The position numbers and the translations under genes were made by a program. From Pseudomonadota bacterium (GTDB lineage: Bacteria; Pseudomonadota; Alphaproteobacteria; UBA11222): 64,000 nucleotides of DNA. Under the pieces are notes generated by a model that saw nothing but the letters and a program-made list of their open reading frames with translations, had not been told where the DNA came from and did no database searches. Positions 2,534-62,020 of the stretch are shown piece after piece. Numbering within the stretch: position 1 is the stretch's first letter; every line of letters starts with the position of its first letter. Location of the stretch: the NCBI GenBank assembly GCA_049325255.1, contig JBMOMW010000056.1, positions 3,137-67,136 on the forward strand, in the 5' to 3' direction.

Positions 2534-3811
2534 TCACTGCCGCAAGCGCCAGATCGCGGATGTGAAATAGGCCGTCATGATCACCAGCGCCAATCCGGTG
2601 GCGGGAACCAGCGGCGCCTTTACCACGCCCAGCCCGTCAATCAGCAGGCCCATGGCGAAACTGCCCAGCGGCGCGCCGCCCACATAGGCAAGCTGAAAAA
2701 TCGACAGGATGCGCCCCCGGCTTTCCGGCGGGGCCGCACCCTGCACCAGGGTGCGGCTCATAATCATGGTGACGCCCCCGGCGGCGCCCCAGATTACAGC
2801 CAGCACACACATAAAAAGCAATGACGGCGCCAGCGATATCAAACCAATCACACCGCAGCTTACGCAACTGGCCAGCAGCATCGTACGCCCCTGACGGCGC
2901 ACCGGATGCATGCGGCGCAGGACCAGCACCACCAGGGTTGTGCCAACCATAAAACTGATATTCAGCAGCGCCAGTTCCGCAGAACTGCCCCGATACACAT
3001 CGCGCACCATCAGCGGAATCTGCACCAGAAATACGCCCGTGAATAATGTCCCGATACAGAACATAAACAGCAGTATGGGCCGGATGGTTGCATTGCGCAT
3101 CGCTGCGCCAAAGCCTTCGGCAATATTGACCAGCGCCCCGCCCCCCGCTGGCAATTGTGGTTTGGCTACCGGTAATTTGCTGCTGAAAAATGCAGAGATA
3201 AATATTAGCGCGCCCTGCAACACCAGCAGTCCAAGCGCCCCGGCGGGATCGGAGGCGCCCGCACCCACCTGCCCCGCCAGCCAGCTTGCGCACCCGCCCA
3301 GCAGGAGACCGGCAATCTGACTGGCAAATTGCAGGCCCGTCATGGCGGTTATGGTATGCTGAATTTCCCCATCATCCACCAGGCTCAGCATTGCATCGCG
3401 CGCCGGCACGACAAACGCCCCGATAACGCCAATTGAAACGCTGATAAACACCAGTCCCCAATAGCTGAGATAGCCAAGCCCGATACCGCCCGCCAGTGAA
3501 AGCGGCAGTAACGCCATGACCACCTGCAAAATAATCAGATAGGTGCGCAGCTCGCGCCGGTCGGCGACGACGCCGCCCAATAAAATAATCGTCAGCATGG
3601 GCAGCATGGTCAGCATCTGCGAAAGCCCCACCAGCCACGGACTGGCGTGCAGCACCTGCGTCATCAGCCAAATGAACACCACATTCTGCACTCCGATGGC
3701 GCAGAAATACGGGCACATGCCCGCCAGATACCAGAACCGCGCAGAAACGGGGGGCTTCAGGGAAGGCGTACCGGCGGGGTTTTGTGGGGCAGTTGTGCTA
3801 TCTGGCCGCAT
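2534..3811 (-). CDS. MFS transporter
   Basis: 425-aa highly hydrophobic protein with about 12 predicted membrane spans and MFS-like loops. Confidence 0.7.
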   Translation of the reverse strand: MRPDSTTAPQNPAGTPSLKPPVSARFWYLAGMCPYFCAIGVQNVVFIWLMTQVLHASPWLVGLSQMLTMLPMLTIILLGGVVADRRELRTYLIILQVVMALLPLSLAGGIGLGYLSYWGLVFISVSIGVIGAFVVPARDAMLSLVDDGEIQHTITAMTGLQFASQIAGLLLGGCASWLAGQVGAGASDPAGALGLLVLQGALIFISAFFSSKLPVAKPQLPAGGGALVNIAEGFGAAMRNATIRPILLFMFCIGTLFTGVFLVQIPLMVRDVYRGSSAELALLNISFMVGTTLVVLVLRRMHPVRRQGRTMLLASCVSCGVIGLISLAPSLLFMCVLAVIWGAAGGVTMIMSRTLVQGAAPPESRGRILSIFQLAYVGGAPLGSFAMGLLIDGLGVVKAPLVPATGLALVIMTAYFTSAIWRLRQ

Positions 3812-3917
3812 GGCTGTGATTGGGTCACTTTATTATTGTGGAATTTGCCTCAGTTTCGCCCCATATGCAGGTTGGAATGTGCAGGCCCTACTCATAAAAA
3901 CGCAAAGGACGATATCC

Positions 3918-4337
3918 ATGAAGCTCCGGCAATTGACTATAGCGGCAGGGCTTGCTTTCGTCATGCTGCTTGGCCCGTCCCTGGCATATGCCGAAACCGC
4001 CGCAAGTGTCAAAGACATACCCCTTGATGATGCCGGTTTGCGGTCATTGGACCAGAAACATTTGCGTCTGGCGCGCAAGGCCGGGACGGTGTGTGTGCAT
4101 CTGTCGCCCGGCGGCGTGGTGCGCAATGGTTCCGCACCCATAGCCCTGGATGGCTGTAATATCAGCCAGCTTGATCATCTGGTCGCAGAACAAAAAGATC
4201 CTGCATTATCGGCCTATCACCTGGCAATCCGGCCGGGCGAACGTTATGACCAGAACCGTTCGGCGCTGTATTGGCGCACGGTCCGCACCCAGTTGCTGGC
4301 AGACCATCCGGAATTAACCATGCCAGCCAATAAATAG
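3918..4337 (+). CDS. hypothetical secreted protein (signal peptide)
   Basis: An internal ATG at 3918 is preceded by AAGGA at -9. The N-terminus (MKLRQLTIAAGLAFVMLLGPSLAYA) looks like a Sec signal peptide. The 5' part of the tracked ORF (3543..) overlaps the MFS gene and is rejected. Confidence 0.5.
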   Translation: MKLRQLTIAAGLAFVMLLGPSLAYAETAASVKDIPLDDAGLRSLDQKHLRLARKAGTVCVHLSPGGVVRNGSAPIALDGCNISQLDHLVAEQKDPALSAYHLAIRPGERYDQNRSALYWRTVRTQLLADHPELTMPANK

Positions 4338-4569
4338 ACTGGACGTTAGGGGAAATGGGTATTATACGCCGGACTCTGTAACTGATGGTGCTGTGGTGAA
4401 TATGATTTTTCTGTCCTCACGACGAAGAACGCTCATCGCGCTCGAAACCCGGGCGCGACGTTAGGCGCGCGCCACACCCTCCCCCGTCCATCTGCCAATG
4501 GACATTCAAAGCGGAAGGCGCGGTAGCGCGCTGAAGTGTTTTCATACACCTTCGCCGGGGAGTTTTATC

Positions 4570-5118
4570 ATGATCGATTATTGCTGCGAGCGGCCCGTGG
4601 ATGCGGGCCAGATTGAACATTTGCTGGACAGGGCCTTTGGGCCCGGGCGCTTTGCCAAGACCGCGTACCGGCTGCGTGAAGGGACGGATTTCATTCCCGA
4701 ACTGTCGCTGGTGGCCTGGGAAGATGGCGTCATGCGCGGCGCGCTGCGCTACTGGCCGGTCGAAATTGGTAATTTGCGCACGCCTGCCCTGTTGCTGGGC
4801 CCGCTTGCCGTGGACCCCGATCAGCGGGGCCGGGGCATTGCCCTGCGCCTGATGGAACTGTCGCTGGCGAAAGCAGCCGGGATAGGCCACAGGATTGTCG
4901 TTCTGGTGGGCGATGAACCCTATTACGCGCGCGTTGGATTTTCTGCGGCAGCCACGCGCGGCTTGCGCATGCCAGGCCCTGTTGACCCCGCCCGGCTGCT
5001 TGCCTTTGAGCTGGTTCCTGGCGCACTGGACGGCGTATCCGGCTTGATCCATAAGGCCAGTGTAGCGGGTGCAGGCGCGCAGTCCGCCCAGATGGCAAGG
5101 CTTGCCGCAGGAAGTTGA
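4570..5118 (+). CDS. GNAT family N-acetyltransferase
   Basis: Acetyl-CoA binding-like segment (LGPLAVDPDQRGRGIALRLM). About 180 aa from the MIDYC start. Confidence 0.6.
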   Translation: MIDYCCERPVDAGQIEHLLDRAFGPGRFAKTAYRLREGTDFIPELSLVAWEDGVMRGALRYWPVEIGNLRTPALLLGPLAVDPDQRGRGIALRLMELSLAKAAGIGHRIVVLVGDEPYYARVGFSAAATRGLRMPGPVDPARLLAFELVPGALDGVSGLIHKASVAGAGAQSAQMARLAAGS

Positions 5119-5145
5119 GGGCAGGCGTTGCGGCTGAACCGCGGC

Positions 5146-5901
5146 TTATATTCCGTGTCCGGAGCGTTTATCCAGTTTCGCATGCAAAATCTGATGCGTC
5201 GTGCATTCTTCCGATATCGAGCATTCACCACAGGCGAAATGCTTGGCCTTGCGCACATTGGTGAACGAAACATGGGCGCCCGTGACAATAACGCCCTGAT
5301 CTTTTATTTTTTGCAATGTGCGCGAGAAAGTTTCCAGCTCCATGCGCAACCGCGACGCGATAAGCGTCTTGGTGTAGGGCAGTTCGAACCCATGCGGATC
5401 AAAATTATACAGTACACATATCTTTTGCAGATAACAGGCCACGATCTGCGCCGCAGACATGGTGGTCAGGTGCTCTGCCTCCATTTCGGCGCCGCGCAGC
5501 CGGTCCGACAGGTCCATCATCAGATGCGCGGCTAAATTGCCAAGATCCTTCAGATGTTCGCGCAGCCATGTGATGGGGATTTCCAGCATGGACACGTCGT
5601 CCACGGCGCGCGCATTTGAGAGATGAATATTCTGACCCGAGACAATTTCGTCTGCGTTGACGCCATCCCCGGCAATCAGAATATTGCTCGTCACCTCATG
5701 TCCGTCCGGCGTTTCGCGGAAGATCTGCACACTGCCCCGGCAGATCACGTAAAAATGCGTGATGGCGTCGCCATGCATGAAAAGAAATCTGCCGCGCCTG
5801 CATTGGCCGATCCGGCTGTTGCGAATCAGGAGCGCGCCTTCTTCCTTGCTCAGATTTGAAAAAAGCGGAAGCGCCTTGAGCGTTTCGACAGCGACGGTCA
5901 T
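5146..5901 (-). CDS. Crp/Fnr family transcriptional regulator with a C-terminal Cys-containing extension
   Basis: N-terminal cNMP-binding domain and C-terminal HTH (YTKTLIASRLRMELETFSRTLQ). ATG at 5901 is preceded by GAGG. An extra C-terminal tail of about 40 aa contains CGECSISEEC. Confidence 0.75.
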   Translation of the reverse strand: MTVAVETLKALPLFSNLSKEEGALLIRNSRIGQCRRGRFLFMHGDAITHFYVICRGSVQIFRETPDGHEVTSNILIAGDGVNADEIVSGQNIHLSNARAVDDVSMLEIPITWLREHLKDLGNLAAHLMMDLSDRLRGAEMEAEHLTTMSAAQIVACYLQKICVLYNFDPHGFELPYTKTLIASRLRMELETFSRTLQKIKDQGVIVTGAHVSFTNVRKAKHFACGECSISEECTTHQILHAKLDKRSGHGI

Positions 5902-6127
5902 GTGCAACCTCAATAAAGGCGCGTCTATTAAATAAAAAGCCTGTTGATTCTAGGTGTTATTAATAAAACGGTCAATGTGCAAATATATTGCACAGGCCCG
6001 TGCACCTGTATCATTTTATGCAGGCGTTGCGGGAAAAACGGCGCCGGGATTGGTTAATTCACAGCACAACCCCCGGCCTGCCCGATCCCGAAGATCAAAC
6101 AGACCGGAATGTGCGGGAAAGCTTGTG

Positions 6128-7756
6128 TTAATTCAGCACAAAGCCTTCATAATTATGGGCCGCGACTTCGTCGCATTTGGCCTTATAGGCCGGGGCGCCA
6201 CCCGCATAGAGCAGGAAGGTGCGCTTCTTCTCCGGCATATTGATGTTGACACCCATGAACCAGCTATCGGTCTTGGTGAAAAGCGAATTCTGCGCGGACT
6301 CGGCCACATGCTCCGTCCATTCATTTTCGGCTTTTACTGTTGGCTCGATGCGCGTCAGTTTTTTGTCGCGCATATATTTCATCAGGTCTGACACCCATTC
6401 CACATTCTGTTCGATGCAGCGCGGGATATTGCAGAAAGTCGCGCCATTATGCGGGCCGACCAGGGTCAGGAAGTTGGGGAAATCATGACCGCCAATCCCC
6501 AGATAGGTGACCGGGCCATCTGCCCATTTGTCCTTGAGCTTCTTGCCGCCCACACCCGTGATATCAATCCGGGTAAATGAGCCGGTGACGGCGTCAAAGC
6601 CGGTGGCGTAAATCAGAATATCCAGCTCATGCTCCTTGTCGCTGGTCTTGACGCCTTTTTCGGTGATGGTCTCGATTGGCGTTTCGCGCAGATCAACCAG
6701 CGTCACATTGTCCTGATTGTAAACCTCGTAATAATTGGTATCCATGGGAACGCGGCGCATGCCAAAGCCATGATTTTTCGGAATCAGCTTTTCGGCAAGC
6801 ACGGGATCCTTGACCCGGCCGCGAATTTTCTTCGCCATGAATTCGGTAAGCAGCGCATTGGCCCTGGGGTCGATCATGGTGTCAACATAATTACCCAGCC
6901 ATTTTTCAAATCCGGGCCTGTTGTACAGATATTCGAAAAACGCCTCGCGTTCCTCGTCGGACACTTCAAAAACCGACTTCATGACGAAATTATGCATGAA
7001 GCCTGCGGTGGATTCCCTGCATTTTTTGAATATTTCCGGATAGTTCTCCTTGATATGGGCCATCTCATCATCCGTGATCGGAGCATTGCGCAACGGCGCG
7101 CAAAATTCCGGCGCAAGCTGGAACACGGTAAGATGCCCGGCAACCTTGGCGGCTTCCTGAATCAGCTGCACGCCGGTCGCGCCCGTGCCGATAACGCCGA
7201 CACGCTTGCCTTTCATGCCGATATCCTTGCCGCCAAAGCCTTTTTCATCTTTTGGCCAGCGCGAGGTGTGGAACGAAACGCCCTTGAATTTATCAACACC
7301 CGGAATTCTCGGCATCTGGGTTGCCGACAGCACGCCAACGGCGGTGATCAGGAACCGGGCGCGGGCGCGTTCGCCTTTTTCGGTTTCAATCTCCCATTCG
7401 TTGGCCTTCTCGTCATAGGTCGCCTTGCTGACGCGCGCGTTGAAGGTGATGTCCTTGCGCAGATCAAATTTCCTCGCGACAAGGTCCAGATATTCCATCG
7501 TGTCCGGCTGCGCCGAGAAATGCTCCTTCCAGTTCCATTCCTGCAACAGTTCCTTCGACCAGGAATAGCCATAGGTATAGCTTTCGGAATCGAAGCGGCA
7601 TCCCGGATAACGGTTCCAGTACCAGGTGCCGCCGACATCGCTGCCGTGCTCGAACACCCGCACATTCATTCCCAGTTCCCGCAGGCGGTAAAGCTGATAC
7701 ATGCCGGCAATGCCGGCCCCGATGATAATAGCGTCATATTGTGGTGTTGTGGACAT
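6128..7756 (-). CDS. Baeyer-Villiger type flavin-containing monooxygenase (cyclohexanone monooxygenase-like)
   Basis: N-terminal FAD motif GAGIAG, a WYWNRYPGCRFD BVMO-like signature and a second dinucleotide motif GTGATG. 542 aa. Confidence 0.8.
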   Translation of the reverse strand: MSTTPQYDAIIIGAGIAGMYQLYRLRELGMNVRVFEHGSDVGGTWYWNRYPGCRFDSESYTYGYSWSKELLQEWNWKEHFSAQPDTMEYLDLVARKFDLRKDITFNARVSKATYDEKANEWEIETEKGERARARFLITAVGVLSATQMPRIPGVDKFKGVSFHTSRWPKDEKGFGGKDIGMKGKRVGVIGTGATGVQLIQEAAKVAGHLTVFQLAPEFCAPLRNAPITDDEMAHIKENYPEIFKKCRESTAGFMHNFVMKSVFEVSDEEREAFFEYLYNRPGFEKWLGNYVDTMIDPRANALLTEFMAKKIRGRVKDPVLAEKLIPKNHGFGMRRVPMDTNYYEVYNQDNVTLVDLRETPIETITEKGVKTSDKEHELDILIYATGFDAVTGSFTRIDITGVGGKKLKDKWADGPVTYLGIGGHDFPNFLTLVGPHNGATFCNIPRCIEQNVEWVSDLMKYMRDKKLTRIEPTVKAENEWTEHVAESAQNSLFTKTDSWFMGVNINMPEKKRTFLLYAGGAPAYKAKCDEVAAHNYEGFVLN

Positions 7757-8099
7757 GGTCTTCCCTCATCTTCCCTGGCTAATTTTATGATTAGATCAGT
7801 ATCTATCAGGATTGCAGCGCCCTTTTCAACTGCGATAGATTAATCCAGCCTTTTCAATCAGATAAAACAAGCTTGCCCCATATGGTTTGATCTGGATCAA
7901 GCTGGATGTGACAAAATCAGCCTGCTCCGGTCATATTAACCGGCGAATCTTCTGCGCTGTAGTGTTTATGCATGGATGGTGTATTAATCAGGGCGTTTTC
8001 CGTCAAGAGCGAGTCGCTGACTTCTGCTGCGTCATTGCCACACAGCGCACGCGCCTCGCAATGACAATGGAGGGGACGTGCGAATGCAGGTTGAACAGA

Positions 8100-8912
8100 A
8101 TGTCGAATATCAAAATTGTCGTGGTGGGCGCAGCGGGCCGCATGGGGCGCACGCTGATATGTCAGGTGTCGCAAACCCCGGGCTGTGAAATTTCCGGGGC
8201 GACTGAGCCAGCGGGATCGCAATTTCTGGGCCGCGATGCGGGCGCGCTTGCGGGCATTGATCCGCTGGGTGTCGCGATTACCGATGATCCGCTGGAGCTG
8301 ATCGCCAAAGCCAATGCGGTGCTGGATTTTACATCACCCGCCGCCGCCGTTGAACATGCCGCGCTGTGCGCGCAGGCCCGCATCGTGCATGTGATCGGCA
8401 CGACCGGATTTGAGGCGGAACACGAAGCCGCCATTGCCGCCGCCGCACGCCACGCCACCATCATCAAGGCGGGCAATATGTCGCTCGGCGTCAATCTGCT
8501 GGCGCAACTGACCAAGCAGGTGGCGAAACTGCTGGATACGGCCTTCGATATTGAAATTCTGGAAATGCACCATCGCCACAAGGTGGATGCGCCATCGGGC
8601 ACCGCATTGCTGCTGGGCGCGGCGGCAGCCGAGGGACGCGGCGTAAAACTGTCCGATGTCGCCGCGCGCGGGCGCGACGGCATAACCGGCGCGCGCAAGA
8701 CAGGCGATATCGGTTTTGCGGTATTGCGCGGCGGCGGCGTGGTTGGCGAACATAGCGTACTGTTCGCCGCAGATGATGAAATCATCGAACTGCGGCACCA
8801 CGCATCGGACCGTTCGATCTTTGCGCGCGGCGCGGTTGCCGCCGCAAAATGGGGCCAGGGCAAGCGGCCCGGACTTTATTCCATGGCCGATGTGCTGGGT
8901 TTTGCCGGATAA
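8100..8912 (+). CDS. dapB: 4-hydroxy-tetrahydrodipicolinate reductase
   Basis: N-terminal [17 protein letters not shown](P)-binding motif and [18 protein letters not shown] catalytic motif. Start chosen at MSNIKIV. Confidence 0.9.
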
Positions 8913-9550
8913 ATCGCAAGGTGCGGCGCGCCCGCTGCGGCGCATTTCGCCACAGATTTCATGACATTGTCTGCGGTAATGCCGACGCCAACCGGGCAGC
9001 CTGCAAGCCGCAACGCGCGCGCGGTCCAGACATTGCAGGTTCTGAATAGATGGAAGTTTTCGCTGCCCGCAAAAAACCGGCTGTCGCCATACAGGCCCTG
9101 CCCCATGCGTTTGACGTTGCCATCTGCATCGCGTTCATAGGCGTCTGAAATATATCGCATGATCTGCGCCATGGCGGGTGCATCCAGCCGTAAGCCGATC
9201 ACCTCGCTATTGGGAAATTTCGCCGTGACCTGCCCGTTAAAGCCCACAAGATGCAGCACACTGGAACCAGGCCAGAGCGCCGCGCCCAGGGCCTGCAATA
9301 GGCTTGGGTCACGGGTCTGGTAAAATTCCCGCTGGCCCCAGCCAACTTCCAGATATTCCCCCGGTGGCGCCTGGCGGTGTTCGGGCCATAGCCCATCTGG
9401 AATATCACCGCGCCGGATTACAAGACCCGTATGCCAGCCATGATGAACCACATAAAGCGTGGCGGCATGCAGGGGCGCTGTCATGAGAATCTGGGGCAGC
9501 AAGAGTGTGATCGCAAAAAAGCGCAGGAAAAGGGGAGATGTTTTTGTCAT
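8876..9550 (-). CDS. DUF2459/TIGR02117-like conserved hypothetical protein with signal peptide
   Basis: N-terminal signal peptide ([29 protein letters not shown]). About 225 aa. Family assignment is from memory of an alphaproteobacterial conserved hypothetical family. Alternative start at 9568. Confidence 0.5.
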
Positions 9551-9557
9551 GCCCTTG

Positions 9558-9755
9558 CTTTGCCACACCCATCTAGCTTTGCCACACCCATATTGTCATT
9601 GCCCGGCTTGTCCGGGTAATCGTCCTCGGGCCGGTCAGGGCCGGTTCCGGGGGCCACGCACGAATGCCTCCCACGAATGCCTCCATTGTATCTGGATTGT
9701 CCGAATAAATCGGGCAATGACAATGTGGGGGTGGACAATGACAATGTGGGGGTGG
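9558..9755. repeat. large imperfect palindrome with internal tandem duplications in a divergent promoter region
   Basis: Left arm: CTTTGCCACACCCAT twice (9558-9592) then ATTGTCATTGCCCG. Right arm: CGGGCAATGACAATGTGGGGGTGG then ACAATGACAATGTGGGGGTGG. The arms are reverse complements of each other. The centre carries CACGAATGCCTCC twice. Confidence 0.6.
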
Positions 9756-9892
9756 ATAGGTATCAAACTGATCCCAAAACGCCCAACAGATAACACCAAA
9801 TCCGACCGTAATGACGCAAGTCGATTTATGTTGAACTTATTGCTGAGTGGTGGCTCAATAAGGCAAAGAAATTAACAGGGGAGAGACAGGGC

Positions 9893-16135: not shown

Positions 16136-17353
<1,218 letters not shown>

Positions 17354-17359
17354 CTATTG

Positions 17360-17530
17360 AGCAATTTTTTTGTTAAGTTTAACGCCAGACCAGTCCTCGG
17401 CCTGTCACCCCGGATTTATTCCGGGGTCCAGGAGCCACACGCAAAGGCCTGAGTTTGTTACCCTGGACCCCGCAACAAGTGCCCCCGGGACCGGCCTTGG
17501 CCGGCCCGAGGACAAGCTCGGTGACACCGG
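17360..17530. other. GC-rich nested inverted-repeat intergenic element (candidate structured RNA or REP-like element)
   Basis: Contains the hairpin CCCCGGATTTATTCCGGGG and the inverted pair GGGGTCCAGG / CCTGGACCCC. Imperfect terminal inverted repeats AGTCCTCGGCC / GGCCCGAGGACAAG. Lies between aatA and the carbonic anhydrase gene. Confidence 0.4.
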
Positions 17531-17613
17531 GGGTGTGGATTGTATCAATAACTAATTGAGTCACAACATCAAGTATAAAGCGGTGCGCAACCTGGCTATG
17601 CCGTGCGAGTGCC

Positions 17614-18513: not shown

Positions 18514-19780
18514 GCTGGTTATGCGCGGCGGCAGGCCGCTTTCGGGCAAAATCGCCATCAGCGGCGCCAAAAACGCCGCCCTGCCATTGATGACAGCCAC
18601 GCTGCTGACCCCGGATCCGCTGACCCTGCGCAACATTCCCGATCTGGCCGATATTACCACCCTAAGCGAGGTTTTGAGCGAGCATGGCGCGGAGATCACC
18701 CTGCGCAAGCAGGACGGCGCGCGCATTTTGACCCTGAGCACGCCTGAAATCACCAGTTCCATCGCCCCTTATGATCTGGTGCGCAAAATGCGCGCCAGTA
18801 TTCTGGTGCTGGGGCCGTTGCTGGCCCGCCATGGTCAGGCGCGGGTGTCGCTGCCGGGCGGTTGCGCCATTGGCACACGGCCCGTCGATCTGCACCTGAA
18901 GGGGCTGGAGGCCATGGGTGCGAAGATCGAACTGGATCAGGGCTATGTCAACGCCAAGGCGCCAAAGGGTCTGCAGGGCGCCAATTTCCGTTTTCCCATC
19001 GTGTCTGTGGGGGCGACCGAAAATCTGCTGATGGCGGCAGCCCTTGCAAACGGCGAAACCGTGCTGGAAAATGCGGCGCGTGAACCCGAAATCGGCGATC
19101 TGGCCCGCTGCCTTATCGCCATGGGCGCGAAGATAGAAGGGGCGGGAACGGAAACCATCCGCATCCGGGGCGTCGCCAGACTGCATGGCGCGGATCATAT
19201 CGTGCTGCCGGACCGGATCGAGGCTGGCACCTATGCGCTGGCGGCGGCGGCAACGGGCGGCGATGTGCTGCTGACCCAGACCAGTCCGTATACGCTGGGC
19301 GCACTGCTGGAGCTGCTCGTCCTGGCAGGCGCGCAGATTGACAGCACCGAAGACACATTGCGCGTCCGGCGCGATCCGTCCCGCCGGTTGAAAGGCGTGG
19401 ACGCCATGACCGCGCCCTTTCCGGGATTCGCCACCGATCTGCAGGCGCAGTTCATGGCCTGCATGATTACCGCTGACGGCGCATCGATGATCAGCGAAAC
19501 CATTTTCGAAAACCGCTTCATGCATGTGCCGGAACTGATGCGCATGGGGGCCAATATCAATCTGCATGGCGGCACGGCATTGGTGCGCGGTGTGGATGTG
19601 TTACGTGGCGCGCCGGTGATGGCGACGGATTTGCGCGCCTCGGTCAGTCTGGTGATAGCCGGCCTGACAGCGCTGGATGAAACCACCGTCAATCGGGTAT
19701 ATCATCTGGATCGCGGCTATGAGCGGATTGAGGCCAAGCTCAGCGCCTGTGGCGCCGATATCAGCCGTATCCGGGACTAG
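18506..19780 (+). CDS. murA: UDP-N-acetylglucosamine 1-carboxyvinyltransferase
   Basis: N-terminus ([29 protein letters not shown]) fits MurA. Catalytic Cys loop present ([15 protein letters not shown]). 424 aa. Confidence 0.9.
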
Positions 19781-19795
19781 ATCATTGGAGCTGAC

Positions 19796-20245
19796 GTGCA
19801 AAAACCGCTGAAACTGACCGCTTTGGACGTGGAAGATCTGGCGGTGATTTCCGCCTGTCTGCAGGATGCAATCGGGCGGGTTGCCGATACGGCCTATGAA
19901 CCGAAACGGCGGCGCTTCGCCATTCTGTTCAACCGCTTCCGCTGGGAAAATGAAGCGGCGCCAAGTCTGGGTGGGGTGTTGGGCCTGCGCACACCGGAAC
20001 GGGTGCGCTGTGCGGTGCATTTCGATGGGGTCACATCTGTGCGTCACCGCAACATAAATCAGGCCAATCCCGAACAGTTGCTGGACCTGCTGGCCATTCA
20101 GGCGCAGGAACAGCGCGACGGCACGGTGCGCATACAGCTATTATTCGCCGGGGGGCCTGAAATGCTGCTGGAAGCGGAATGCGTGGATGGCTATCTTGAA
20201 GACCTCAGCCAGCCATGGCCAGCATCCGGGCGGCCGGAACATTAA
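19796..20245 (+). CDS. DUF2948 family protein
   Basis: Conserved alphaproteobacterial gene between murA and hisD. 149 aa. Confidence 0.7.
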   Translation: MQKPLKLTALDVEDLAVISACLQDAIGRVADTAYEPKRRRFAILFNRFRWENEAAPSLGGVLGLRTPERVRCAVHFDGVTSVRHRNINQANPEQLLDLLAIQAQEQRDGTVRIQLLFAGGPEMLLEAECVDGYLEDLSQPWPASGRPEH

Positions 20246-20280
20246 AGTATGCTCATTTTTGATGGAAACCTGACCCATTT

Positions 20281-20389
20281 TTCGTCATTGCGAGGCGCGG
20301 AACGCGCCGTGGCAATCCAGAGTCTCATAAGAAAGCCCGAGTTTGTGACTCTGGATCGCCACGCCGCTTTGCGGCTCGCGATGACGGCG
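20281..20389. repeat. roughly 105-bp palindromic intergenic repeat element, copy A
   Basis: TTCGTCATTGCGAGGCGCGGAACGCGCCGTGGCAATCCAGAGTC ... GACTCTGGATCGCCACGCCGCTTTGCGGCTCGCGATGACGGCG. About 85% identical to the copy at 61916-62015. Confidence 0.7.
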
Positions 20390-20416
20390 TAGGGAAAATA
20401 CTGATCGGACCATGCC

Positions 20417-21721
20417 ATGCCAGTAAGGCTGAATAGCAGCGCCGCAGGCTTTGAGGATGCGTTTCTGGCGCTGCTTGGCGCCAAGCGTGAAACATCAGAA
20501 GACGTTAATCACACCGTCGCAGGCATTCTTGCGGATGTGGCTTTGCGGGGCGATGCGGCGTTGCTGGAATATACCGCGCGCTTTGACCGTCTGACGGCGC
20601 AGCCAGCGCAGCTTGCCTTTAGTGCGGCGGAAATTGACGCGGCCATTGCCGCCTGTGACCGTCCCACGCTCGATGCGCTGGAACTGGCGGCGGCGCGGAT
20701 CGAGGCCTATCACCGCCGTCAACTGCCGCATGATGATCTGTACACGGATGATATCGGGGTGCGGCTTGGCCATCGCTGGACATCTCTGGGCGCGGTGGGC
20801 ATGTATGTGCCCGGCGGCACCGCGTCCTATCCCAGCTCGGTGCTGATGAACGCCATCCCGGCCAGGGTGGCGGGCGTGGCCCGCCGCGTCATGGTCATGC
20901 CTACACCTGATGGTAAATTCAATCCGCTGACCCTGGCGGCGGCGCGTCTTGCGGGGGTGCATGAAATTTACCGCATCGGCGGCGCGCAGGCGGTGGCGGC
21001 ACTGGCCTATGGCACCGCGAGCATCAAATCCGTCGATAAAATCACCGGTCCCGGCAACGCCTGGGTGGCGGCCGCCAAGCGCCAGATATTTGGCGCCGTT
21101 GGCATTGACATGGTTGCAGGGCCTTCGGAAATTCTGGTGGTGGCGGACGGGGCCAATGATCCGGCCTGGATCGCCGCCGACCTGCTGTCCCAGGCTGAAC
21201 ATGACGTCAGTGCGCAATCCATCCTGCTGACCGATGACGCCGCCTTTGCCGATGCGGTGGCGGCCGCGATCGCCGTGCATCTGCAAACCCTTCCGCGCGC
21301 CGCCATTGCCGCGCAAAGCTGGGATGCGAATGGCGCCATCATCCTTGTACAGAATATGGATGATGCGCCGCCCCTGATTGACCGCATCGCGCCCGAACAT
21401 CTGCAATTGGCGGTGCATGATCCCGAAGCATTAATGGCGAAGGTGCGCAATGCCGGGGCGATCTTCCTGGGCCGTCACACGCCCGAAGCCATTGGCGATT
21501 ATATTGCAGGGCCCAACCATGTGCTGCCCACGGCGCGCGCGGCGCGCTACGCCTCGGGCCTGTCAGTGCTCGATTTCATGAAACGCACCACCATCATCGG
21601 TTGCACGGCTGAGGCGCTGGCGGCGCTGGCGCCTGCGGCCGCCACGCTTGCATCAAGCGAAGGACTGGAGGCGCATGGGCGTTCCATCTCCATCCGCCTC
21701 AATGCGCGCGGTCAAACATGA
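20417..21721 (+). CDS. hisD: histidinol dehydrogenase
   Basis: 434 aa. Conserved HisD segments (YVPGGTASYPSSVLM and SQAEHD). Confidence 0.9.
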   Translation: MPVRLNSSAAGFEDAFLALLGAKRETSEDVNHTVAGILADVALRGDAALLEYTARFDRLTAQPAQLAFSAAEIDAAIAACDRPTLDALELAAARIEAYHRRQLPHDDLYTDDIGVRLGHRWTSLGAVGMYVPGGTASYPSSVLMNAIPARVAGVARRVMVMPTPDGKFNPLTLAAARLAGVHEIYRIGGAQAVAALAYGTASIKSVDKITGPGNAWVAAAKRQIFGAVGIDMVAGPSEILVVADGANDPAWIAADLLSQAEHDVSAQSILLTDDAAFADAVAAAIAVHLQTLPRAAIAAQSWDANGAIILVQNMDDAPPLIDRIAPEHLQLAVHDPEALMAKVRNAGAIFLGRHTPEAIGDYIAGPNHVLPTARAARYASGLSVLDFMKRTTIIGCTAEALAALAPAAATLASSEGLEAHGRSISIRLNARGQT

Positions 21722-26284: not shown

Positions 26285-26360
<76 letters not shown>

Positions 26361-26395: not shown

Positions 26396-26485
26396 TGGCG
26401 GAGAGGGTGGGATTCGAACCCACGAGACAGTTTCCCGCCTACACGCTTTCCAAGCGTGCGCCATCGACCACTCGGCCACCTCTCC
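26396..26485 (-). tRNA. tRNA-Ser (anticodon GGA), class II with long variable arm, CCA encoded
   Basis: The reverse complement reads GGAGAGGTGGCCGAGTGGTCGATGGCGCACGCTTGGAAAGCGTGTAGGCGGGAAACTGTCTCGTGGGTTCGAATCCCACCCTCTCCGCCA. Anticodon loop is TTGGAAA. Confidence 0.85.
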
Positions 26486-32674: not shown

Positions 32675-33286
32675 ATGAATGTTGATCTGCATATTGGCGA
32701 TCTGCCGGATAATATCTCTTTCGGGAATTGCGTCGCCATCGACACCGAAACCATGGGCTTGAACCCCCATCGCGATCGGCTGTGCCTGGTGCAGCTTTCG
32801 GCGGGCGACGGCACGGCGCATCTGGTGCGCTTTAATCTGGGCGATTATAACGCCCCCAATCTGGTGCGCCTGCTGGCCGACAAAAATGTGATCAAACTGT
32901 TTCATTTCGCCCGCTTTGATGTGGCCATGCTGAAACATTATCTGGGCGCGGACACCGCACCCATCTATTGCACCAAGATCGCCTCAAAGCTGGTGCGCAC
33001 CTATACCGACCGCCACGGCCTGCGCGATGTGGTCAAGGATCTGCTGGGCCACGAGGTTTCCAAACAGCAGCAAAGCTCGGACTGGGGCGACCCGAACCTG
33101 AACGAGGCGCAGTTGAAATATGCTGCATCCGATGTGCTGCACCTGCACGCGCTAAAAGCCAGACTGGACGACATGCTGGCCCGCGAAGGCCGCACCGCCA
33201 TGGCCAAGGCCTGCTTCGACTTCCTGCCGGTGCGCGCGGAACTTGATCTGCTCGGCTGGCCGGAAATGGATATTTTTTCACATTAA
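32675..33286 (+). CDS. 3'-5' exonuclease, small RNase D-like (DEDDy family)
   Basis: Exo I motif (AIDTETMGL), Exo II (LFHFARFD) and Exo III (YAASDVLHLH). 203 aa. Its last about 50 nt are duplicated after the R-M islet. Confidence 0.75.
   Translation: MNVDLHIGDLPDNISFGNCVAIDTETMGLNPHRDRLCLVQLSAGDGTAHLVRFNLGDYNAPNLVRLLADKNVIKLFHFARFDVAMLKHYLGADTAPIYCTKIASKLVRTYTDRHGLRDVVKDLLGHEVSKQQQSSDWGDPNLNEAQLKYAASDVLHLHALKARLDDMLAREGRTAMAKACFDFLPVRAELDLLGWPEMDIFSH
33230..33285 (+). repeat. direct repeat DR-L flanking the R-M islet (the 3' end of the exonuclease gene)
   Basis: GTGCGCGCGGAACTTGATCTGCTCGGCTGGCCGGAAATGGATATTTTTTCACATTA. Repeated at 35513-35566 with a 2-nt indel and one substitution. Confidence 0.85.
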
Positions 33287-35418: not shown

Positions 35419-35512
35419 GGCCGTGATTCTGACATGATGCCTGGTTATCGTCAACATTATGTTCTTTTATTGTTCTAAATTTGACTGGTTTTTATGGTGC
35501 GATACAGAGGGG

Positions 35513-35566
35513 GTGCGCGGAACTTGATCTGCTCGGCTGGCCGGAAATGGATATTTTTTCGCATTA
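35513..35566 (+). repeat. direct repeat DR-R flanking the R-M islet
   Basis: GTGCGCGGAACTTGATCTGCTCGGCTGGCCGGAAATGGATATTTTTTCGCATTA. Would encode the same C-terminal peptide (...ELDLLGWPEMDIFSH) as the exonuclease gene end. Confidence 0.85.
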
Positions 35567-61424: not shown

Positions 61425-61853
61425 TCACGCCCCCAGCAGATGACGGATGATATAAACCGTCGCAAATCCGCTGAACATGAACGCCACTGTTGCCACCATT
61501 GAACGCACCGACAGACGCGAGACGCCACACACCCCATGACCACTGGTGCAACCACCGCCCAGCCGCGTGCCGAAACCCACAATCAGGCCAGCCGCCGCCA
61601 GCGCAAATGGCAATGAAACTGGAAACTGAATATCGGGCAACTGCCCACCCAGCGCCTTATAGACCAGCGGCCCGCAAATCAGCCCCAGCACAAAGGCCAG
61701 CCGCCATTGCCAATCGCCTGCAACCGGCACAATCAGCCCGCCCGCAATACCGCTGATACCCGCAATGCGGCCATTCAGCAGCATGAACAAAACCGCCGAC
61801 AGGCCGATCAGACTGCCGCCTATGAATGCGCTGATAGGGGTGAAATTTTCCAT
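61425..61853 (-). CDS. YeeE/YedE family membrane protein (first half-gene, with GCTSGHG motif)
   Basis: 142 aa. The conserved Cys motif [12 protein letters not shown] is typical of the YeeE/YedE (DUF395) sulfur-compound transporter family. Confidence 0.65.
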
Positions 61854-61915
61854 TTGTTACTTCCTCTAATCAAAATAATTTCAGACCATAATAATTTCAG
61901 ACCGGGGGCGCGCAC

Positions 61916-62015
61916 TTCGTCATTGCGAGCGAAGCGCGGCAATCCAGAGTCGCAAACACAGGCCTTTGCGTGAGACTCTGGATCGCCACGCCGCTTCGCG
62001 GCTCGCGATGACGCA
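61916..62015. repeat. roughly 100-bp palindromic intergenic repeat element, copy B
   Basis: TTCGTCATTGCGAGCGAAGCGCGGCAATCCAGAGTC ... GAGACTCTGGATCGCCACGCCGCTTCGCGGCTCGCGATGACGCA. Same family as 20281-20389. Confidence 0.7.
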
Positions 62016-62020
62016 TTAAG

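Follow-up and report, generated by a model that had tools for sequence, protein, structure and literature searches.

Two recently inserted, intergenic inverted dimers of CGTC-tagged REP units as likely recognition sites of an Ssn-type nuclease

Two palindromic elements in intergenic regions

The stretch of DNA analysed here (64 kb; the window), from an uncultured alphaproteobacterium, contains two related palindromic elements, copies A and B, which are listed with their components in Table 1. Copy A (104 nt) lies between a gene encoding a DUF2948 protein (stop at 20245) and hisD (start at 20417); the Pfam names of its neighbours were taken from orthologous loci. Copy B (96 nt) lies between the stop of a gene encoding an LLM oxidoreductase and the start of a YeeE-like gene. 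Both copies start with CGTCATTGCGAG and end with CTCGCGATGACG, they begin 37 nt and 7 nt past a stop codon, respectively, and the genes flanking each of them are co-directional. An earlier note on this DNA, made from the letters alone, had reported two palindromes at these places, the first of them in the murA-DUF2948/hisD intergenic region, with arms about 85% identical between the copies. Both locations and the gene context are correct, and a repeat finder linked the copies at 82% identity over 79 nt in direct orientation (D1) and at 80% as inverted arms (I1). The ORF running across copy B (61707..61973), which had been called spurious, is indeed so, and translates the element as ...SSLRAKRGNPESQTQAFA.

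Rfam at gathering thresholds identified four tRNAs in the window and nothing else, and in E-value mode copy A returned only miRNA-precursor hairpins far below threshold. Six-frame peptides of the elements had no match in Pfam or NCBIfam, blastn of copy A against plasmids gave weak partial matches only, and literature searches with the element DNA strings and the spurious peptides found nothing relevant. The DUF2948 protein of the window had no exact match on record. Among the other repeats of the window, the 50-nt inverted repeat I2 results from 2 tRNA genes, at 26285-26357 (+) and 26399-26485 (-), which lie about 40 nt apart, and a 57-nt direct repeat of 95% identity (D4; 33229-33285 and 35510-35566, 2.3 kb apart) is unrelated to the elements described here.

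Table 1. Coordinates of the repeat elements, their parts, and the blocks that contain them
Feature	Position in window	Strand	Evidence
Copy A, inverted dimer of two CGTC-tagged REP units; tags outward, CCA tails inward	20283..20386	.	Sequence; folding z -7.8/-7.7; empty orthologous site in four relatives
Copy A, left unit: CGTC / ATTGC GAG GCGCG-GAA-CGCGC CGTG GCAAT / CCA	20283..20319	+	Fold of the arm alone
Copy A, spacer: GAGTC + 22 nt + GACTC; ends prolong inter-arm pairing	20320..20351	.	
Copy A, right unit (minus-strand reading): CGTC / ATCGC GAG CCGC-AAA-GCGG CGTG GCGAT / CCA	20352..20386	-	Fold of the arm alone
Inserted block at site A: 40 nt AT-rich filler + dimer + 5 nt	20243..20391	.	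Alignment with L194, L195, L196, L197
Copy B, inverted dimer of CGTC-tagged REP units	61918..62013	.	Orthologous junction without it in L200, L201, L203
Copy B, left unit	61918-61946	+	
Copy B, spacer	61947-61978		
Copy B, right unit	61979-62013	-	
Whole intergenic block at site B, LLM oxidoreductase stop to YeeE-like start	61854..62020	.	
Different CGTC-class unit, TGTC ACCCCGGA TTTAT TCCGGGGT CCAG, inside a composite at ~17337-17555	17403..17431	+	Sole window match to the published SRM pattern
CGTC-class dimer, TGTC ATTGCCCGG CTTGT CCGGGTAAT ... ATTGTCCGAATAAATCGGGCAAT GACA, nested in duplicated CCACACCCAT / ATGTGGGGGTGG flanks	9594..9722	.	Repeat finder (I3), folding
Solo or remnant unit, CGTC ATTGC CACACAGCGCACGCGCCTC GCAAT GACA, upstream of dapB	8030..8066	.	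Full decaying dimer in relative L086

A very large and widespread repeat family

As the window holds just two full copies, one could read the elements as chance palindromes, or as a local segmental duplication with no family behind it, the latter having been named in the earlier note as grounds for abandoning a repeat family. The flanks of A and B could not be aligned in a four-way alignment of both strands, so the pair is not a segmental duplication, and 6 C/TGTC-tagged hairpins with a CC tail occur in the window, compared with 0.22 expected from dinucleotide shuffles. Above all, there are hundreds of copies elsewhere, in relatives as well as in other taxa. A pattern of two termini spaced 60-90 nt apart matched 73 stretches in IMG/VR, and a narrower one (the outer terminus plus GGCRATCCAGAGTC) matched at least 119 stretches in the genome collection. 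These copies refute the reading as chance or local duplication, to which we assign next to no probability.

The family is very large and widespread. At least 233 elements were extracted, of which at least 207 are distinct. Most of the matches listed belong to Alphaproteobacteria (Sphingomonadales, Bradyrhizobium, Methylocystis, and many MAGs), while some of the listed matches come from MAGs labelled Bdellovibrionales, Nitrospinota, Thiobacillus, Bacteroidota, and others. The statement in the earlier note that a very similar palindrome recurs in other proteobacterial genomes, where it is mis-translated into short ORFs, was thus borne out in both respects, since spurious peptides recurred as well.

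Across these elements, the outer and inner stems are conserved, while the mini-hairpins and spacers vary, and the commonest form is a heterodimer whose side segments measure 15 and 9 nt. Gene contexts assigned with a crude gene caller, which left 84 elements unclassified, were co-directional in 82 cases, convergent in 23, and divergent in 7, with a median distance of 29 nt from the stop codon. The repeats often bracket single genes in repeat-dense regions. The matches in IMG/VR are mostly alphaproteobacterial gene-transfer-agent (GTA)-like clusters: many of the element-bearing “viral” contigs (L001-L073) carry genes for an HK97 capsid, a prohead protease, DUF2460, and BR0599, with dimers bracketing single structural genes, such as a 398-aa gene in L024, L032, L056, and L065. 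When the ORFs beside the 233 elements were clustered in search of a cognate transposase, no transposase recurred; the recurrent neighbors were GTA and phage structural genes instead, because of this origin of the IMG/VR matches.

Each arm is a tagged stem-loop of its own

From the outside in, each arm contains CGTC, ATYGC, GAG, a short variable hairpin, CGYG, GCRAT, and CCA, in that order. In the resulting unit, the CGTC tag and the CCA tail stay unpaired. ATYGC pairs with GCRAT as a 5-bp stem, GAG and CGYG form an internal loop, and the mini-hairpin above it varies (GCGCG-GAA-CGCGC, CCGC-AAA-GCGG, or only GC-GAA-GC), with apical loops of 3 nt (GAA, AAA). In both A and B, two units are joined by a 32-nt spacer, which starts with GAGTC and ends with GACTC. 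All four A/B arms, when folded alone, left CGTC and CCA unpaired, paired ATYGC with GCRAT, and formed the mini-hairpin; for copy A, the left unit reached -16.8 kcal/mol, with tag and tail unpaired, and the right unit -16.2 kcal/mol.

We compared 60 distinct arms of 35 nt from the family. The CGTC tag, with which all four A/B arms start, is invariant among them, and the first two stem pairs are A-T and T-A in 60 out of 60, in a stem of 5 bp, an internal loop, and a further 4-6 bp. CCA follows the stem in all four A/B arms, and its invariance among the 60 is not independent evidence, as it was demanded by the pattern that collected them. The third stem pair (7/30) is U-A in 37 arms, C-G in 20, and another combination in 3, and four pairs of the apical mini-hairpin show double-sided changes. 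The covariation score was reached by none of 500 shuffles, and structures slid by 1-3 columns scored far lower.

The complete elements also fold into very stable hairpins. Copy A reached -66.9 and -62.7 kcal/mol on its two strands, and copy B -55.9 and -60.6 kcal/mol, with z-scores of -6.2 to -7.8 relative to dinucleotide shuffles, none of which (0/200) folded as well. The two arms of a copy are not equivalent, however: the left arm reads ATTGC...GCAAT, the right arm ATCGC...GCGAT, and the side hairpins differ as well. Pairing is therefore perfect within an arm, but includes T-G and A-C across arms. Together with the covariation within arms, this indicates self-folding of each arm. What is conserved is a pair of tagged stem-loops in facing orientation, rather than one long hairpin. 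Of the structural description in the earlier note, an imperfect palindrome remains; “near-perfect” was an overstatement, given that the arms consistently differ and each pairs better with itself, and the long hairpin is not the structure that is conserved.

Membership of the CGTC-tagged REP superfamily

Repeats of this kind have been described as the CGTC-tagged REP superfamily, with four families (Di Nocera, De Gregorio, Rocco 2013, BMC Genomics 14:522; PMC3733652). In that survey, they are defined by an unpaired CGTC (or TGTC/CCTC) tag, a stem that opens with A-T and T-A pairs, and a short CCA tail. They are reported there as mostly inverted dimers with spacers of 20-100 bp, which are often conserved, and as mainly alphaproteobacterial, located downstream of ORFs between co-directional or convergent genes, and without a dedicated flanking transposase. 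Neisseria dRS3 and Rickettsia RPE-4 and RPE-6 are included as members. Copies A and B share the tag, the first two pairs, the tail, the inverted dimer with a conserved spacer (here 32 nt), and the position after stop codons, and their repeat type likewise occurs mainly in Alphaproteobacteria, downstream of ORFs, with no flanking transposase. Membership of A and B, as inverted dimers of CGTC-tagged REPs, is therefore secure on account of tag, first pairs, tail, dimer, and position.

There are differences as well. The published families have a continuous stem of 8-9 bp and a loop of 4-5 nt, whereas the stem of A/B arms is interrupted (5 bp, internal loop, 4-6 bp) and their loop is 3 nt, outside that loop range. 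Also unlike the published families, an A/B-type dimer usually has different mini-hairpins in its two arms. For Bradyrhizobium CGTC-1, the survey itself notes units whose loops differ in length and composition.

Several other repeats of the window belong to the same class (Table 1). The composite at 17337-17555 consists of a TGTC-ACCCCGGA unit, a spacer of the A/B type, a degenerate partner, and a GTCCTCGGGCCGG...CCGGCCCGAGGAC module, which is also present at 9622-9654 (I5, 91% complementary). At 9555-9760, the TGTC-ATTGCCCGG dimer lies inside directly duplicated flanks, with GCTTTGCCACACCCAT twice on the left and GACAATGTGGGGGTGG twice on the right. Similar CCCC(A/T)CC / GG(T/A)GGGG flanks accompany many dimers in a related MAG, and the duplicated flanks recall the “target palindromes” reported for CGTC dimers of Halothiobacillus.

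The spacer of A and B is found in combination with other stems. Its family also occurs at 17432-17467 and in MAG G04_MAG_00026, and a 22-nt core (CACGCAAAGGCCTGWGTTTGTG) is conserved across dimers with different REP stems (window positions 20320-20351, 61947-61978, and 17432-17467, and L076-L192). Relative to the asymmetry of the arms, this core occurs in both orientations, approximately 6 versus 5 times in the G04 lineage, and the spacer of copy B is inverted relative to that of copy A. This suggests a frequent flip-flop of the spacer between the inverted arms.

Filled and empty sites in relatives

The insertion sites of both copies could be compared with those in relatives. One relative (L194, GCA_040960765.1) is 96.8% identical to the window at the nucleotide level over 3.2 kb around murA-hisD. 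In this relative, as in three more distant ones, 12 nt separate the DUF2948 stop from the hisD start, compared to 171 nt in the window. The additional block falls inside the last four DUF2948 codons and brings a new TAA stop, by which these four codons are lost: relatives end in ...RPEHWDKE, and the window in ...RPEH. Insertion of copy A thus cut a real gene short by four codons. At site B, the gap between the LLM oxidoreductase and YeeE-like genes is 2, 4, and 14 nt in relatives whose LLM oxidoreductases are 91%, 86%, and 81% identical, respectively, and 167 nt in the window. When read on the minus strand, the block at this site has 7 nt before the dimer, which is followed by 62 nt of AT-rich filler; the filler includes a GAGGAAG ribosome-binding site and a tandem duplication (GGTCTGAAATTATT x2). 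The filler beyond the dimer amounts to 40-62 nt of unrelated DNA at the two sites. Alignment of filled and empty sites revealed no target-site duplication at site A, and none was found in the corresponding comparison at site B. These comparisons show that copies A and B are recent insertions.

Homologous recombination with a divergent donor was considered as the source of copy A and rejected, as no divergent tract surrounds the block. Over 230 nt on its left side, the block is not accompanied by any rise in divergence from L194. To its right, 11 differences are found in the first 150 nt, compared with 2-3 per 150 nt beyond, and approximately 6 of the 11 lie within the first ~15 nt past the block. 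This pattern, with no raised divergence on the left and raised divergence only in the first 150 nt on the right, argues against the import of a divergent allele. Separately, murA has 29 differences from L194 in the 300 nt of 19113-19412, where most bins have 0-5 per 150 nt (8 at 19563-19862). These differences resemble a short tract of recombination, which is unrelated to the insertion at 20243.

Other sites vary among relatives too. The composite at 17337-17555 is missing from L194. Upstream of dapB, the window has a solo unit of 37 nt at a site where L086 (MAG G04_MAG_00026), which is 83-90% identical to window positions 3041-8929, has a full decaying dimer (5069-5200). The latter carries an internal 15-nt duplication and a mutated right terminus, and five tandem GCAGGATCGAACAC copies lie just downstream of it. 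The occurrence of empty and filled, and of solo and full, sites among relatives implies that the elements are gained and lost on a short time scale.

These insertions, each a dimer with 40-62 nt of filler placed without duplication into a tight junction, do not look like classical transposition. A MITE, i.e., an internally deleted IS that has terminal inverted repeats and depends on the transposase of a full-length relative for its movement, would share the palindromic outline, the size of ~100 bp, and the conserved 12-bp termini. Such an origin is nevertheless highly improbable: both filled sites lack a target-site duplication, the inserted blocks extend 40-62 nt past the “termini” on one side, no IS with such ends is found among the neighbors, and the arms covary internally as hairpins. 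The elements had been likened to REP and MITE sequences in the earlier note; we retain the REP half of that comparison, in the form of CGTC-tagged REP dimers, and drop the MITE half, given the missing target-site duplication and the absence of a related IS.

Association with genes for Ssn nucleases

A candidate protein partner is offered by work on Neisseria, in which the NTS (CGTCATTCCCGCGMAVGCGGGAATCYRG) has to be single-stranded to be bound and cut by the 94-aa GIY-YIG protein SsnA, and only one of its strands serves as substrate. NTS flank the gene for SsnA, related motifs flank Ssn homologues across bacteria, and transformation by DNA that carries NTS is lowered by SsnA (Nat Commun 2025, 16:2388; PMC11893778). 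NTS and the related motifs (SRM) have several features in common with the repeats described here: the CGTCAT... tag, the hairpin, the CC(A/G) tail, and the presence of repeats on both sides of a gene for a small single-domain GIY-YIG protein (cd10448-like). The published SRM search pattern, HGTCWYN(0-2)YYVSBRHN(0-5)WNVSBRGN(0-2)RNCYNB, matched the NTS control and none of the four A/B arms; in the window it matched only 17403-17431.

By tblastn and ORF screens, no GIY-YIG or ssn gene was detected in the window (64 kb), nor in loci from its closest relatives; both ORF screens, which were based on regular expressions, missed genuine genes that tblastn later found. To retrieve annotated genes from plasmid and chromid records, a GIY-YIG probe was used, and solely for this step. 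The genes obtained are bracketed by two CGTC dimers in Azospirillum lipoferum and by C/TGTC-ACCCCGGG units in Sphingobium, and lie amid many NTS in N. gonorrhoeae. When the retrieved proteins were compared by tblastn with all element-bearing loci, two ssn genes were found, in L147 and L028. The gene in L028 is bracketed by CGTC/TGTC-ACCCCGGA units, the type found at 17403 in the window, which also brackets an ssn gene in L206.

The ssn gene in L147 (alphaproteobacterial MAG ASF_7; 6669-6956) lies between two dimers of the ATYGCGAG type, at 6507-6604 and 6987-7116, which are located 65 nt upstream and 31 nt downstream of it. The left arm of copy A (38 nt) is identical to an arm beside ssn in L147 (dimer 6507-6604) and in L300. 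Homologues of the L147 Ssn with 76-86% identity were found in four other gene contexts, with units or dimers of the ATYGCGAG type 13-55 nt away, and on both sides in three of the four. Repeats of this type thus flank ssn genes encoding GIY-YIG proteins of ~95 aa in five contexts (L147, L290, L294, L298, and L300). The protein of this clade matches Pfam PF01541 and is 52% identical to the N. gonorrhoeae homologue; it carries the motif REKxIKAG, where the clade of the studied SsnA carries REKxLKKW.

The repeat type also follows the clade of the nuclease in its density. Around the ssn genes of the four further contexts, ATYGCGAG-type units occur at 2.34 per kb, compared with 0.08 in the window, 0.00 in 33.5 kb of orthologous loci of its relatives, and 0.01 in 184 kb around 80 metagenomic ssn genes of the Azospirillum/Sinorhizobium/Neisseria-like clade, which were found with a profile built on three Ssn proteins. 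In 76 of these 80 loci, ATTCCCGC/ATCCCCGC units are present instead. The densities and stem types per clade indicate that nuclease clade and repeat stem go together, as cognate pairs would. The bracketing of ssn genes by repeats is an association, not proof of recognition.

One further locus, L276, first appeared to have an ssn gene beside a ATTGCGAG dimer, and was discarded as such, since it actually contains an ssn paralogue disrupted by such an insertion. Its two tandem ssn paralogues (900-1360) differ in that the first is split after about its ninth codon by a block of ~170 nt, which consists of a ATTGCGAG-type dimer and unrelated DNA and is similar to the A/B blocks. Both paralogues are then followed by GTCATTCCGGGG-type dimers with a mini-hairpin in each arm.

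The arrangement resembles that of REPINs moved in trans by a RAYT (HUH/Y1 transposase), as known from Pseudomonas and E. coli. As in REPINs and E. coli BIMEs, two inverted REP hairpins and a spacer make up the unit, which is intergenic, present in high copy number, and recently gained without target duplication; further parallels are a domesticated nuclease gene, present in single copy between its own repeats, and, as predicted here, recognition of a single-stranded hairpin. That A and B are themselves such REPINs is nonetheless very unlikely. The tag is CGTC, not GTAG; PMC3733652 reports that CGTC repeats were not found to flank any RAYT gene; a tblastn search with RayT of E. coli found nothing in the window or in 1.3 Mb of element-bearing loci; and the clustered neighboring ORFs included no recurrent transposase. 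A weak RayT match in L083 lies inside a 520-aa ORF and does not represent a RAYT gene. Rather, the gene that is bracketed by ATYGCGAG repeats encodes a GIY-YIG nuclease, which, in contrast to the HUH/Y1 transposase, forms no covalent intermediate.

DNA rather than RNA as the site of action

The elements could also act at the level of RNA, by protecting mRNA 3' ends or by attenuating read-through into hisD or the YeeE-like gene, as has been proposed for E. coli REPs; in this view, such an effect would be what keeps them in place. Their position is consistent with this idea, as A and B follow stop codons at 37 and 7 nt between co-directional genes, the family has its median at 29 nt, and few contexts are divergent. 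The folds are of high stability, transcription of CGTC REPs is argued for in PMC3733652, and 3'UTR effects of E. coli REPs are reported in a 2026 preprint. Several results nevertheless speak against a strand-specific role as RNA. G-U is not in excess on the sense strand (88, versus 84 A-C; p = 0.82), and the arm with the long side segment has no preferred orientation relative to transcription (42 versus 31). No terminator-like site (a hairpin followed by a T-run, on either strand) and no sigma-70-like promoter was found at A or B, and no Rfam family covers the elements. What covariation preserves is the hairpin of each individual arm, with a fixed unpaired tag, and SsnA is inactive on RNA (PMC11893778). 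In addition, the absence of A and B from relatives at 97% identity implies that they have no conserved regulatory role at their sites. We therefore regard a function in RNA as unlikely. An incidental effect on the RNA of neighboring genes is plausible, but is not what the conservation reflects. In the earlier note it was suggested that the elements, if transcribed, could form a long hairpin; the evidence points to single-stranded DNA and Ssn, and away from an RNA hairpin or terminator.

Proposed mode of action

In the reading that we consider probable, copies A and B are inverted pairs of CGTC-tagged REPs, which are non-coding, act as single-stranded DNA, are likely recognition sites of Ssn, and were recently inserted. 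In single-stranded DNA, each half of a dimer would fold on itself and expose CGTC and CCA. By analogy to the Neisseria system, this tagged hairpin would most likely be recognized by a GIY-YIG Ssn nuclease of ~95 aa, encoded once elsewhere in the genome. Ssn may then bind the hairpin and, on the strand with the CGTC...CCA reading, cut the single-stranded DNA a few nucleotides to the 5' side of the tag. As the tags of a dimer point outward, two cuts are predicted just outside the element, one on each strand, which would bracket it. Binding and cleavage of the repeats by Ssn are predicted here from the Neisseria biochemistry together with the association of gene and repeat. The effect on the cell, drawn from the literature, might be a restriction or modulation of recombination with single-stranded DNA.

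As for their arrival, both copies came as blocks of ~150-165 nt, consisting of dimer and filler, which entered tight junctions without target-site duplication. The filler DNA and the missing duplication do not follow from any known mechanism of GIY-YIG enzymes. A tentative extension, which we put forward with considerable reservation, is that ATYGCGAG dimers and the REKxIKAG Ssn form a distinct cognate pair that the SRM pattern misses, and that copies may arise by a route not known from transposons, in which Ssn nicks single-stranded DNA beside the hairpins and fragments that are released or stalled, each a dimer with some adjacent DNA, are captured at breaks or replication gaps. Such nicking and capture would explain the insertions of 150-165 nt with filler, the lack of duplication, the junctions of 2-14 nt, and the flipping of the spacer.

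Implications

Elements of the kind of A and B have been described before, and their likely protein partner was published in 2025. New here are the filled and empty sites at 97% identity, the covariation within arms, and the assignment of this very common repeat type to a specific Ssn clade, which the published motif fails to capture. The window provides clean pairs of filled and empty sites for CGTC REPs at this level of identity. For annotation, the elements should be masked, as they create spurious ORFs such as 61707..61973. Finally, our results point to one specific Ssn clade as the candidate partner of the CGTCATTGCGAG repeats, which are very common in Alphaproteobacteria. Biochemical confirmation of this pairing would add a new specificity to the site-specific single-stranded-DNA nucleases, and would offer a tractable system for studying how CGTC repeats multiply.
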